Below, one piece after another: positions 57,921 through 63,274 of a stretch of DNA of 64,000 nucleotides. Position 1 is the stretch's first letter, and each line of letters opens with the position of its first letter. The stretch covers positions 1-64,000 of the IMG/VR virus record IMGVR_UViG_3300023184_005116; one strand, given 5' to 3'. Below the pieces are notes generated by a model. That model made no database searches, was not told where the DNA came from, and saw only the letters and a list, made by a program, of their open reading frames with translations. The translations under genes were made by a program, and so were the position numbers. Origin of the DNA: a virus.

Positions 57921-59897
57921 ATGGCGGGAATAAAGAATCTATCTGAAATATATCAAAAGCAAGGTAAAGATTTCGTTGAAAAACTTTTTAACGACGAAAT
58001 AACAGTGACTGAAAATCTAGATGGGTCCTCATTTTCATTCGAGAAAGATTTTATAGGAGATAATATTTCCTTTTATAAGAAAGACCAAGAAAATCCAATT
58101 ACAAGAGTTGATAGGATATTAATGACGTATTACGAAAAGCCTATTAATTACATAGATGCTTTACCTGATTCGGTAAAGCAGGATATACCTAAAGGATGGA
58201 GATTTGGAATGATATATTTTCCAAACTCTAAACCTGTTAGAATAGAGTATGACAGAGTTCCTAAAAATCACTTAATCCTTACACATATTATTGTAAGAGA
58301 CGAGTTTGGTGATACGGTAAGAACAATACAGGATAAGAAAGAATTAGATATATGGTCAGAAAAAATAGGGGTTGAAAATGCTCCTATATTATTTCAAGGC
58401 AAGCTAAATCAAGATCAGAAGATATGGATTATGGATTTTCTTTCCACTCCACTGATGGATCTTAGAAATAGATTTAAAACAGAAAGCTTTACTAAGTATA
58501 TCATATCTCTTATAAATCCAGGAATAATACAAACAACACTAGGCAGAGATCTAGAAGGACAGATTGATTCAATTATTTTTAGATTTAGTAGTAAAGAAAA
58601 TGAAGAAGAGGTATTAGCCAAAATGGTTGATCCTATATTTTATGAACTTTCTAGAGAAAGAAAACCGGAAAGATCATCATATCTTCCTAATGATGTATAC
58701 TCGTTATGTCTAATTGATATAATGAATTTTATATTAGAGGAAGGAATTGAAAGCTTTCCTGCTGACGGTGAAGAACCAGAAGAAAGGTATATTAACTTTG
58801 TATTCTCTGTTTTTAAAAGATTTATTACTGCTTACGGAGAAAAATATATTGGTGTAGATTTCGATAAACCCGAATATCTTAAGTCAGAAAACTTTGGATT
58901 AAACAAAGAATTTATACAAGATGAAGAAGTACTTTCCAATCTTGAAGAGGACGAAGCTTATACTGATATTTTACAATTAATACTAAACTCATTTAGAAAG
59001 CTAAAAAGAAAACCACATGGTTTTTTTACTGAGGGACTAATTCAAGAGTTTAATCATCTTGTTGAAGAAATAGCAGATTATATAAATGCTAAAAAGAAGG
59101 AGAAAATACAAGAAGCATTAGGAATCCCCACATTTGTTTGGTTTAAAAAAATAGGTACTAAATTTAAGTTAACAGAGGAGGAAGATTTACAATCAGTTAA
59201 TGAAAGTGATGAACATTTAGAATTAATCCTTGAATCTGAATCTAATGATAAAGAAGAAGAGGAAGAAAAAGATACTTCTGAATTTTTCTCATTTAGAGAT
59301 TTTAAAAAAGTTGTTTCCACAAACAAGGAGAAAAAGAAAATTAAAATTCTAAACGAAGAAAAAGAAAAAGTTAATCTTCTTATAGGTAAATTTCAGCCAT
59401 TTAATAATGGTCATCTAAAAATGTGTACACGATTAAAAAAAGAAAATGGCTTACCTGTTTTTCTATGTGTAGTTCATCCTGATGGGGAAGCATCAAAAAA
59501 ATACCCATTCTCTATAGATCTAATTAAAAAATGTATTGGGGCTTTAACTTCGGAGGATCCTAAACTATTTGCAGGGTATAAAATCATACCATCAAATCTT
59601 TTAGAGGATGCTTTGGTATCTATTTGCGAAGAACTTAATCCTGTTTCTGTTTGTGTAGGAGAGCCTGATTTCGAGAATACTATACTTCAAAGAGAATGGA
59701 TTAGAAAAAAATACGATCTTAAAAACCAAGATATAGAAATATTTAAAACACCTAGATGGTCAGATAACGAAAAGGTTAGAGAATGTATCAAAAGTGGAGA
59801 TTTTCAAGGGTTTAAAGGAAGCGTGCCTAAGTCTATTGCAGTTTTATTTAATGAGTTTGTTAAACAATCCAGTGATGATGAAAGCGAAGATATATAA
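57921..59897 (+). CDS. Fusion: RNA-ligase (Rnl2-like) fold with degenerate motif I plus C-terminal HIGH-type nucleotidyltransferase domain
   Basis: VTENLDGSSFSF (motif I, K to N), PILFQG, AKMVD; C-terminal IGKFQPFNNGH, YPFS, S..KVRECIKSGD. Confidence 0.65.
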   Translation: MAGIKNLSEIYQKQGKDFVEKLFNDEITVTENLDGSSFSFEKDFIGDNISFYKKDQENPITRVDRILMTYYEKPINYIDALPDSVKQDIPKGWRFGMIYFPNSKPVRIEYDRVPKNHLILTHIIVRDEFGDTVRTIQDKKELDIWSEKIGVENAPILFQGKLNQDQKIWIMDFLSTPLMDLRNRFKTESFTKYIISLINPGIIQTTLGRDLEGQIDSIIFRFSSKENEEEVLAKMVDPIFYELSRERKPERSSYLPNDVYSLCLIDIMNFILEEGIESFPADGEEPEERYINFVFSVFKRFITAYGEKYIGVDFDKPEYLKSENFGLNKEFIQDEEVLSNLEEDEAYTDILQLILNSFRKLKRKPHGFFTEGLIQEFNHLVEEIADYINAKKKEKIQEALGIPTFVWFKKIGTKFKLTEEEDLQSVNESDEHLELILESESNDKEEEEEKDTSEFFSFRDFKKVVSTNKEKKKIKILNEEKEKVNLLIGKFQPFNNGHLKMCTRLKKENGLPVFLCVVHPDGEASKKYPFSIDLIKKCIGALTSEDPKLFAGYKIIPSNLLEDALVSICEELNPVSVCVGEPDFENTILQREWIRKKYDLKNQDIEIFKTPRWSDNEKVRECIKSGDFQGFKGSVPKSIAVLFNEFVKQSSDDESEDI

Positions 59898-59900
59898 ATA
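59889..59900 (+). promoter_or_regulatory. Putative class B promoter GATATATAAATA
   Basis: Upstream of the peptidase-like gene; contains TATAAATA. Confidence 0.5.
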
Positions 59901-59910
59901 AAAAATTAAG

Positions 59911-60600
59911 ATGAGAAGAATTCTTGGTTGGAATGATTTCAAACTATTCGAGCAAGTTTATCTAGATAAGGATGATCCGAAAGGAAATCAAATATCAGAG
60001 CAAGCTTTTAAAAAAATGAGGCTTTGTTGCTTCGATATTATGGGTAAATACCCGTTCTTTAGAAAGCTTCTTTCTGATTTAGTTATTAGAGAAAACAGAA
60101 ATCTAAAATATAGAACAATGGCAACCGATGGTGTTAGTATACACTACGATCCAGGGTTTGTTTTAGCAAAAACTGAGGGAGAAATTATATTTGTAATATG
60201 TCACGAAATAATGCACAACGTATTATTTCACTTTGCTAGAAAAATGCCAGACCCAGATTTATGGAATGCTGCAGCAGACTACGCATTAAATCAATTACTT
60301 GAAGGTGTTGGCGAAATGCCTAAAGAAGGTTTATATCCTGGATGCGGATGGCACCCAGATGATAAAAAATTCGTAAATCTTTCTGCAGAGCAAATATACG
60401 AATGGCTAGTTAAATCTGGATCTAAATCCCCAGAAAAACCGGAGCCAGGAGAAGGTGAGCCAGATTCAGAACTTAAAATAGGTGACATAATTAGAGATAC
60501 TAAAACTAATACCTATGGTGTTGTTAAATCGATAGATGTAGCATCAGGGGAAATAGATTTTGATCCTATTCCAGAATCAGATGTTTCAAAATATTTATAA
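59911..60600 (+). CDS. DUF2201-N-like putative metallopeptidase (HExxH) with capsid-targeting-like leader and C-terminal SH3/KOW-like motif
   Basis: TMATDG, CHEIMH, WNAAADYALN, SAEQIY; leader MRRILGWNDFKLFE; LKIGDIIRD...YGVVKSI. Confidence 0.8.
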   Translation: MRRILGWNDFKLFEQVYLDKDDPKGNQISEQAFKKMRLCCFDIMGKYPFFRKLLSDLVIRENRNLKYRTMATDGVSIHYDPGFVLAKTEGEIIFVICHEIMHNVLFHFARKMPDPDLWNAAADYALNQLLEGVGEMPKEGLYPGCGWHPDDKKFVNLSAEQIYEWLVKSGSKSPEKPEPGEGEPDSELKIGDIIRDTKTNTYGVVKSIDVASGEIDFDPIPESDVSKYL

Positions 60601-60603
60601 AAA

Positions 60604-61716: not shown

Positions 61717-61717
61717 T

Positions 61718-61726
61718 GATATATAC
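61718..61726 (+). promoter_or_regulatory. Putative class B promoter GATATATAC
   Basis: Intergenic, upstream of the AAA+ gene. Confidence 0.5.
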
Positions 61727-61747
61727 AATAGAAAATAAAAATAATCA

Positions 61748-63274
61748 ATGAAACGCATTTACAACTTTAACGAATTTGTCAACGAGGGGTATCTCGATAA
61801 AATAGGATCCACTGTAACTGGATGGATAAAATCTATGAAAGATGCTATTAAATCTGGATTAGTAAAATTAATACCTTCCGGTGCTAAAGCAGGTAAGCCA
61901 ATGGCAACTGCATTTGACCCTGATAAAGGATCAATAGAAGCTCAGCTTTTAGATTTCTTTAAAGGAACACCTTATGCTGAAATGACATCAGAAACAAATG
62001 AAGCTCAAGTTCCTTTAGCTTATCCAAAATCTGAAGACGTTTTAGACGTAAAAGAACCAGAGCTTAAAAAAATGATTAAAACTCGCCTTAAAGCAGTTTT
62101 AAAAGCTGGGGACGAAGATAATATTCAAGGAGTATTAGATGTTAAACCTATTTTTATCTTTGGAGCTCCTGGTATTGGTAAAACACAAATCGTTGCTCAA
62201 GTATGTGATGAATTAGGAAGAGAACTTTACGGTAAGCCTTTAAACTTGGCTTTTGTAGATGGTGAGTTTGCAGAACCAGTAGACTTTGCTGGTGTACCTT
62301 CAGTAGTAGACGTTGAAAATCCTAGTGATGAAAGTCCTTACGGAAAAGGTATTACTAGATCTAACGTATCTGTTAACCTTTTACCTAATGATAACGGTAG
62401 AGATAATATGGGTGGTATTCTTTTCATTGATGAGTTAAACCGTATGCCACAAGAGGTTGTTAAAGTTTTTATGAAGCTTGCACAAAGCAGAAGACTTGGA
62501 CAAACTTATAATATTCCTAATAAATGGTATATTGTAGCTGCTGGTAATAGAGCAGAAGATGATCCAAGAGAAGTTAAGCAAATGGGTACAGCTCTTAGAG
62601 ATCGTTTCTCAGTTGTTAACTTTTTACCTACAGTTGCTGGTCTAAGAAAATATATTGAAGGTGGAAGATTAAAAGATGTTGTTATTCCTGAATTATTAGA
62701 CTTTTTAGAATTCCAACAAGAATATTTCCACAACCTTGATCCTGCTAAACAAATGATTAAATATCCAACTCCTAGAGCTTGGACTGATGCTGCAATTGGA
62801 TTAAAAAGAGTTATGGACGAACTTTCTTCTGAAGGTGTAACTGAATTATCCGATAAAGATATTATTAGTGCATTTCAAGTAGAAGTAGGATATGAAGCTG
62901 CTGCTGCATTCCTAGATTTCTATAAAATTGCTAAAGAAATTCCAGTTAAAGATTTAATGCTTCCGTTCACTAACCCTGATAAAGCACCTCTTCCTGATGA
63001 TAAGAAAGATCCTAAGTCTGGAAGACCTAGAGCTGATTATGCACACGCATTACTTTCTGCTATTATCAGAAAAAGTAAAGATACTACACTTACGGATAAA
63101 GAAGTATGTAACTTTGCTTCTTATCTACAAAGAGTTAACTCTCCAGAATGGGGTAACGCTGCTATTGCAAACCTATTCAAAGAGCATACTTACTTAAGAA
63201 AAGACGCTAAAGCAATTCAATGTATCGCTCCACTAGCTGGTAAATGGGGTGCAGAACTTGGAACGGAATTATAA
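61748..63274 (+). CDS. MoxR-like AAA+ ATPase with capsid-targeting-like leader
   Basis: Walker A GAPGIGKT, Walker B ILFIDELNR, sensor AAGN, Arg finger ALRDRF, PTPRAW; leader MKRIYNFNEFVNE. Confidence 0.88.
   Translation: MKRIYNFNEFVNEGYLDKIGSTVTGWIKSMKDAIKSGLVKLIPSGAKAGKPMATAFDPDKGSIEAQLLDFFKGTPYAEMTSETNEAQVPLAYPKSEDVLDVKEPELKKMIKTRLKAVLKAGDEDNIQGVLDVKPIFIFGAPGIGKTQIVAQVCDELGRELYGKPLNLAFVDGEFAEPVDFAGVPSVVDVENPSDESPYGKGITRSNVSVNLLPNDNGRDNMGGILFIDELNRMPQEVVKVFMKLAQSRRLGQTYNIPNKWYIVAAGNRAEDDPREVKQMGTALRDRFSVVNFLPTVAGLRKYIEGGRLKDVVIPELLDFLEFQQEYFHNLDPAKQMIKYPTPRAWTDAAIGLKRVMDELSSEGVTELSDKDIISAFQVEVGYEAAAAFLDFYKIAKEIPVKDLMLPFTNPDKAPLPDDKKDPKSGRPRADYAHALLSAIIRKSKDTTLTDKEVCNFASYLQRVNSPEWGNAAIANLFKEHTYLRKDAKAIQCIAPLAGKWGAELGTEL

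Follow-up and report, generated by a model that had tools for sequence, protein, structure and literature searches.

A MoxR-type ATPase and a split vWA/zinc-peptidase pair with T4-like N-terminal leaders in an uncultured jumbo phage

Three adjacent genes of an uncultured phage encode a zinc peptidase, a von Willebrand factor A (vWA) adaptor and a MoxR-type AAA+ ATPase, and both the peptidase and the ATPase begin with a short leader that resembles the capsid-targeting sequence (CTS) of phage T4. They lie in the window analysed here, i.e., the first 64 kb (positions 1 to 64,000) of IMG/VR record IMGVR_UViG_3300023184_005116, a viral contig of 102,757 bp with 32-35% G+C that is rated as ~34% complete. 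Because the peptidase recurs letter for letter on a contig of 320,792 bp, the source is taken to be a jumbo phage with a genome of about 320 kb. We propose, with a probability of about 0.6, that both enzymes are made late, loaded into the prohead and relieved of their leader by a prohead protease of the S77 family. Delivery of the active module to the next host is a further step, which we regard as possible, at somewhat less than even odds.

The three genes encode a MoxR-type module

The initial annotation of the window had recognised a HExxH protein, a vWA protein with a metal ion-dependent adhesion site (MIDAS) and a MoxR AAA+ protein in adjacent genes, and these assignments hold: all domains score above their cut-offs and the motifs are intact. 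The first gene (59911..60600, + strand) encodes a DUF2201_N zincin metallopeptidase of 229 amino acids with a small C-terminal beta domain. It matches PF13203 with 74.5 bits (cut-off 23.2, E = 1.3e-20) over model positions 16-146 and carries a HExxH motif (HEIMH); residues H98, E99, H102, and H107 are invariant across the aligned homologues. A fold search with its AlphaFold2 model (predicted local distance difference test, pLDDT, 84.5) returned no match with E < 0.001, and the weak matches (E = 0.05 or worse) are all zincins, e.g., selecase, thermolysin, and PPEP-1. The second gene (60604..61716, + strand) encodes the vWA-like MIDAS adaptor, 370 amino acids long, in which a DUF2201_N tail precedes an acidic, glycine-rich linker and a DUF2201 domain (PF09967, 63.9 bits, cut-off 26.4, E = 2.1e-17). 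Its MIDAS residues read DTSGS, GGT, and TDG. The DxSGS motif and the Asp of the TD(G/S) motif are kept in all seven aligned relatives, and the Thr of GGT is replaced by Asn in two of them.

The third gene (61748..63274, + strand) encodes the ATPase, whose 508 residues comprise the leader, a clade-specific N-domain (approximately residues 14-100), and an AAA_5 core (residues 133-478). It matches PF07728 with 40.8 bits (cut-off 22) and the phage family phrog_1297 over the entire core (E = 1.7e-44). We identified a Walker A motif (GAPGIGKT), a Walker B motif (FIDE), the sensor-1 residue N267, and the arginine finger R286, and 10 residues are invariant in 38 ATPase sequences (G139, P141, G142, G144, K145, D228, E229, N267, R268, and R286). 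In the fold search with the AlphaFold model (pLDDT 82), the highest target-normalised TM-scores of the core among the listed matches are those of NorQ (0.59) and CbbQ2 (0.58); the lowest E-values belong to other AAA+ proteins, e.g., MCM, FtsH, and RuvB. A sequence search of the PDB with all three proteins gave nothing useful, and the PADLOC defence models recognised no defence family in the module, only weak generic AAA matches (E = 6.8e-5 or worse). Judging from domains and motifs, the three genes are the clade's version of a MoxR-type AAA+ ATPase with its vWA/zinc-peptidase pair.

The N-terminal part of the ATPase is peculiar to this group of phages. All the ATPase homologues of ~500 amino acids, which come from metagenomic jumbo-phage contigs and go down to ~30% identity, have an N-extension of ~100 residues. 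In a tblastn search with the ATPase, this extension was covered solely by an uncultured 462-kb phage, and the 487 other records matched the AAA core alone. Searching with residues 1-100 returned chiefly the ATPase's own family. We rejected an AIG1 GTPase and two other long proteins that matched the N-domain in several stretches, as they have no Pfam domain in common and the matches look compositional.

The peptidase and the ATPase start with a T4-like leader

The leader of the peptidase, MRRILGWNDFKLFE (59911..59952, + strand), is a predicted propeptide that ends in L-F-E and is followed by Q; its final residue, E14, is at least 90% conserved. That of the ATPase, MKRIYNFNEFVNE (61748..61786, + strand), is predicted to end in V-N-E, followed by G. 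Both are the true N-termini of their proteins, span 13-14 residues, and are poorly ordered in the models (pLDDT <50, ~40, for residues 1-23 of the ATPase; 55-66 for residues 1-20 of the peptidase). The likeness to T4 that the initial annotation had pointed out was borne out by comparison with T4 ipII and ipIII (NC_000866), which start with MKTYQEFIAE followed by A; gp24 starts with MAKINELLRE-S and gp22 with MLKEQLIAE-A. Thus, FNEFVNE-G here corresponds to YQEFIAE-A in T4, and the common pattern is an aromatic residue, an amide, E, F, an aliphatic residue, any residue, and E, followed by a small residue.

This pattern is strongly concentrated at protein starts. It occurs in 9 of 108 open reading frames (ORFs) of the contig, vs 0.21 expected from shuffles, and in 17 of 327 ORFs of G001 (0.5 expected), a 248-kb relative whose ATPase is 89% identical to that of the window. 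None of 495 internal Met positions is followed by it, and the N-terminal enrichment is about 35-40 times. With a looser definition, ~40 proteins of G001, about one gene in ten, carry the leader. The tagged proteins are otherwise unrelated in their bodies or match no family. Synonymous codon use within the leader is the same as in the rest of the genes, which indicates that the peptide, rather than the RNA, is under selection; we thus discarded an RNA-level explanation.

Every ATPase homologue of ~500 residues retains the leader and the (N/D)-E-G site, with the consensus M-K/R-(R)-I-x-x-F-x-E-F-V-N-E followed by G or S, and in the more distant ones the leader is longer and has two NE sites in succession. 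All split peptidases start with M-K/R-R-I-L-x-F/W-x-D/E-F/Y-x-L/I-F/L-E. The initial annotation had suggested that phage homologues would carry the leader and cellular ones would lack it. This is the distribution that we found: all the phage homologues of ~500 residues are tagged, and those of Calothrix, Sulfurovum, and Microcoleus have no leader; the cultured phages S-TIM54 and St11Ph5 lack it too. Across 185,579 species genomes, a leader-bearing ATPase was present on only two contigs (27 kb and 254 kb) of Bacteroidota metagenome-assembled genomes (MAGs), only one of which matched back into the N-extension of the ATPase by tblastn. Because they are full of further leader-type ORFs, we consider both to be phage DNA. 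The two contigs (L106 and L107), binned into Saprospirales and Bacteroidetes MAGs, represent jumbo phages of the wider group; their binning is a weak hint of a Bacteroidota host, or else an error.

One leader-tagged protein of G001 has a recognisable anti-defence domain. It is 256 amino acids long (151584-152354, L018:11584-12351, + strand), starts with the leader MKRIKDFKGFINEQ, and matches Pfam Tad3 over residues 49-170 (E = 4.5e-21). T4 injects the anti-restriction protein IPI*, and the tagged Tad3 protein parallels it, as a candidate for anti-defence cargo packaged in advance. Tad3 directly inhibits ThsB, the sensor of type I Thoeris (PMC13728456).

Two other genes of the window's contig bear on the range of proteins with such N-termini. 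In an adenylate kinase (contig 73251-73844, L001:9251-9841; PF00406, E = 2.6e-36), 13 residues that resemble the leader, MRIKNFGDFGSKE, extend the protein ahead of the P-loop, and no promoter motif was found upstream of its gene. A leader-tagged protein of 435 amino acids (contig 81435-82742, L001:17435-18739), whose C-terminal part matches phrog_3000 and, weakly, an endolysin family, may be a virion-borne wall-degrading enzyme.

The leader ends in the motif of a predicted capsid maturation site

The relatives G001 and G004 encode an S77 prohead protease of the T4 gp21 type. The capsid protein of the clade (G001 L012:315-2036; L025-L104) has an invariant HSLNE-SAGAY at residues 39-48 in at least 27 distinct orthologues (66-100% identity), and we predict that it is cut after E43 during maturation. 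A propeptide of the T4 kind would be expected to end at this place; the comparable site of T4 gp23, its cut point, reads FLTE-AEIGG. In G001, the S77 protease (18267-20300, L011:18267 to L012:300) forms a fusion with a long C-terminal part, which has fourteen 14-residue repeats, (E/D)YLAENLDKNISYS, each with YLAE-N. The same protein has seven sites made of a hydrophobic residue followed by N-E (LNE/INE/VNE), the most of any G001 protein, and its C-terminal part looks like a scaffold meant to be cut into short peptides. The leader ends in this very motif, hydrophobic-N-E followed by a small residue, which is thus common to the leader, the predicted site of the capsid protein, and the protease-scaffold protein. 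It is 4-9 times enriched within the first 30 residues of proteins, with a mode at residue 13. Two leader genes lie directly 3' of the capsid gene in G001.

The tagged genes have a motif in common with structural genes

As the initial annotation had seen, the peptidase and the ATPase genes are each preceded by their own GATATATA motif, which is late-type and promoter-like and which they share with head, baseplate, and fibre genes. The first copy (59889..59896, + strand) lies 22 nucleotides 5' of the peptidase start and is kept in three relatives (L004, L007, and L008); the second (61718..61725, + strand) lies 30 nucleotides 5' of the ATPase start and is kept in two (L004 and L007). The vWA gene of the window has neither a leader nor a motif of its own, and the vWA proteins of the relatives are never leader-tagged. 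Of the copies of the motif, 13 are on the + strand and a single one is on the - strand; 11 of the former lie 13-51 nucleotides before a start. On this contig, baseplate and fibre-like genes are preceded by a broader version, [AG]ATATATA. In G001, it precedes the S77 protease, other head-module genes, and a gene of 863 codons just upstream of the protease, which is possibly the portal and matched no PHROG family. It was not found before the genes of the helicase, the primase, the single-stranded DNA-binding protein (SSB), or the ribonucleotide reductase. The association between motif and leader genes is significant here (Fisher p = 1.2e-3) and in G001 (p = 1.9e-9). A scan for sigma-70 promoters gave fewer sites than shuffles and is not informative.

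Proposed head loading of the tagged enzymes and its alternatives

We propose the following scenario. By analogy with NorQ/NorD and CbbQ/CbbO, the vWA protein would bind either the client or the ATPase ring at its MIDAS site; the ATPase, as a hexamer, would use ATP to remodel the client, and the zincin would cut it. The clade has the peptidase-vWA fusion divided between two genes, and its ATPase and peptidase have each gained a leader. Both would be made late and drawn by the leader into the prohead core, where the gp21-type (S77) prohead protease would trim it after the final Glu. The vWA partner would enter the head only by binding the ATPase or the peptidase. Head loading of the tagged enzymes is likely because the leader is T4-like, enriched at N-termini, and ends in the capsid-maturation motif, and because a relative has both a gp21-type protease and a tagged Tad3 protein. 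Once in the head, ejection with the DNA is slightly favoured over a role confined to the prohead, since the anti-defence (Tad3) domain of that relative is on a leader-tagged protein. The initial annotation had the whole machine packaged and injected. The distribution of the leader, its protease-motif end, and the motif shared with structural genes agree with this for the two enzymes. What the initial annotation overlooked is that the leaderless vWA protein stands in the way of delivering the complete machine, which would depend on its piggy-backing.

Several points weigh against this scenario. The lateness of the motif is deduced only from the genes that it precedes, and we infer packaging, cleavage, and ejection of the tagged enzymes from sequence features. 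The S77 protease was not found on the window's contig, which represents about a third of the genome. This contig encodes a ClpP-like protease (90905-91636, L002:6905-7633; PF00574, E = 1.5e-26) that also matches head-maturation protease PHROGs, and which may serve either as another head protease or as a Clp enzyme of the cytoplasm. The vWA partner carries no leader, and a hexameric AAA+ ring could exit through the tail only after unfolding. The homologous modules of cultured phages sit among non-structural genes, and that of phage 0305phi8-36 is listed as non-structural (PMC2147016). Finally, the role that Iyer et al. (2021, PMC7824862) proposed for such modules is in assembly, not delivery.

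The last point leads to the strongest alternative, which we regard as unlikely, yet the most serious: the module would be a late assembly chaperone or processing protease, in the cytoplasm or associated with the prohead, with no function after ejection, and the leader would only bring it to the assembly site or into the prohead, to be degraded or discarded later. Besides the proposal of Iyer et al., it draws on the MoxR/vWA pair of Acidianus two-tailed virus (ATV), which PMC3466262 links to tail development, on the late-type motifs common to the module and the structural genes, on the untagged vWA partner, and on the module of S-TIM54, which adjoins genes of an Hsp20 and a virion structural protein. 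However, T4-type leaders mark proteins that are inside the head, and the tagged internal proteins and Alt of T4 are ejected (PMC5694885). A tagged protein with an anti-defence domain has no obvious use in assembly, and leaderless versions of the module evidently function in other phages without head targeting.

We find it quite improbable that the leader is unrelated to the capsid and acts as a tag of late proteins, for a common chaperone, a compartment, or turnover by the ClpP-like protease, with the module free in the cytoplasm. The presence of that protease on the contig is consistent with such a tag, as are the leader-like start of the adenylate kinase and the proportion of leader-bearing genes in G001 (~1/10), which is many for head cargo. 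Yet the end of the leader is identical in kind to the invariant site predicted in the capsid protein and to those of the protease-scaffold protein, leader genes adjoin the capsid gene, the clade has a gp21-type protease, and the leader is closely similar to the experimentally defined CTS of T4.

If the leader does serve to load heads, the T4 internal-protein principle, known for a small set of short proteins, would extend to a cargo that is large and modular and has an ATP-dependent machine in it. This would point to pre-packaged counter-defence and host-takeover enzymes as a general strategy of giant phages, and the leader plus the late motif would be a simple sequence rule to predict virion cargo in uncultured phages. 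It would also open a way to the function of the MoxR/vWA-peptidase module, which is widespread in phages. We tentatively suggest that in T4-related uncultured jumbo phages one leader could serve as a general address tag that loads dozens of unrelated, pre-made enzymes, among them a complete ATP-driven remodelling protease (with the vWA adaptor piggy-backed) and a Tad3-like Thoeris inhibitor, which would be delivered with the DNA and act before phage gene expression.

The peptidase and the vWA adaptor are halves of a normally single protein

The initial annotation described three separate genes, which is accurate for the window, and missed that the peptidase and the vWA adaptor are normally one protein. 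Both genes match phrog_1314 (394 positions, mislabelled as 'HNH endonuclease'), which makes them the halves of a polypeptide that is normally single; the vWA gene holds the remainder of DUF2201_N (model positions 173-257) ahead of its DUF2201 domain. Here and across the clade, DUF2201_N and DUF2201 are thus distributed over two genes. In the window, the two ORFs are in one frame with only TAA AAA between them (a 3-nucleotide gap), and in the relative L004 they are also in the same frame with a gap of 6 nucleotides. In the relatives at 56% identity and below (L007, L008, L106, and L107), the two frames differ and 1-148 nucleotides separate the genes. The most distant of these, L106 and L107, have the ATPase first in the gene order, and L007 (3967-5961) has two tandem vWA paralogues (327 and 335 amino acids) between the peptidase and the ATPase genes. 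Stand-alone peptidases of 229-292 amino acids are found down to 36% identity. A fused DUF2201 gene broken by a nonsense mutation, or read through at its stop codon, would fit the shared frame and short gaps of the window and of L004, but we give it next to no credence and discarded it, because frames, gaps, and gene order vary among the relatives, one of which has two vWA copies, and because the split persists down to the most divergent stand-alone peptidases with every catalytic residue retained. The comparison of the relatives indicates that the split is real, old, and conserved in the clade.

Genes around the module

The region 5' of the module contains genes for the tail and the baseplate, together with T4-like ones for replication (a gp32-like SSB, a UvsY-like protein, a primase, and a gp41-like helicase). 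A blastn search of GenBank phages with the module region gave no match. The gene that adjoins the peptidase upstream (57921-59897, 658 codons) is syntenic with the module in every relative. Its product has a weak cytidyltransferase-like match in the C-terminal part and no leader, the gene has no late-type motif, and its stop codon falls within the GATATATA motif of the peptidase gene. Directly 3' of the ATPase, a gene encoding 90 amino acids (63280..63552, + strand) is also in conserved synteny and is probably co-transcribed with the ATPase. It is followed by the next leader-bearing gene (63557..64000, + strand, continuing to contig position 64090), which encodes 177 amino acids with the leader MKHIKLFEHFLNE. 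The local cluster starts with a GATATATA motif and a leader-bearing gene (56122..56741, + strand) for a protein of 196 amino acids (MKNIQLYEHFCINE).

Comparison with known systems

The initial annotation knew of no characterisation of this gene arrangement, and in this it was mistaken. The MoxR/vWA-metallopeptidase pair of group 2.2 jumbo phages was described by Iyer et al. (2021, PMC7824862), who suggested that it serves virion assembly and peptidolytic processing, and a MoxR/vWA pair of ATV is cited as a virion component in PMC3466262. The pairs of the group 2.2 jumbo phages, of the N4-like phages (gp24/gp25), and of S-TIM54 have the same AAA_5, DUF2201_N, and DUF2201 domains in adjacent genes, with intact Walker, HExxH, and MIDAS motifs. 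In cultured phages, they consist of an ATPase and a fused peptidase-vWA protein, with 331 and 381 amino acids in the T4-like cyanophage S-TIM54 and 350 and 391 in the N4-like St11Ph5. Hence, the known phage pairs have an ATPase of 331-350 amino acids without the N-extension and a fused partner of 381-391, and they have no leader. In contrast, the module studied here has a split peptidase/vWA pair, two leader-tagged parts, an extra N-domain in the ATPase, and late-type motifs before the tagged genes. Bacterial ATPases (complete chromosomes of Calothrix and Sulfurovum, and Microcoleus) have 333-334 amino acids and start ~20 residues before Walker A; in Microcoleus, the gene next to the ATPase encodes a fused HExxH-plus-MIDAS protein of 414 amino acids.

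For the ATPase core, the nearest solved folds are those of the NorQ/NorD and CbbQ/CbbO systems, which have the same logic of an ATPase plus a MIDAS adaptor. They differ in sequence (~15% identity), are cellular metalloenzyme activases, and have no peptidase. ATV also has a MoxR/vWA chaperone pair, p618 (MoxR) and p892 (vWA), which is carried in the virion (cited in PMC3466262). However, ATV is an archaeal virus, its pair has no peptidase and no T4-type leader, and the role proposed for the pair is in extracellular tail growth.

The leader is best compared with the CTS of T4, which is present on IPI-III, Alt, gp24, and gp22 and which gp21 cleaves off (Mullaney and Black 1996, cited in PMC5694885). 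Both are N-terminal peptides of 10-14 residues on unrelated proteins that end in a hydrophobic residue, any residue, and Glu, followed by a small residue. A gp21-type S77 protease is encoded in the clade, by the relatives G001 and G004, and the predicted capsid-protein propeptide ends at a comparable site. They differ in that the leader reads M-K/R-x-I-x-x-F-x-E-F-x-N-E, is on dozens of genes per genome, including those of large enzymes, and is known here from sequence. The giant phages phiKZ and SPN3US likewise eject many head-internal proteins, which a gp21-related protease has first cut behind a Glu (PMC5694885). Their propeptides are mostly longer than 100 residues with the motif A/S-x-E, and the text consulted mentions no MoxR module among these proteins. 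Overall, the module itself was already known, and what is new here is the split of the peptidase/vWA protein, the leader tagging, the N-domain of the ATPase, and the late-type motifs.

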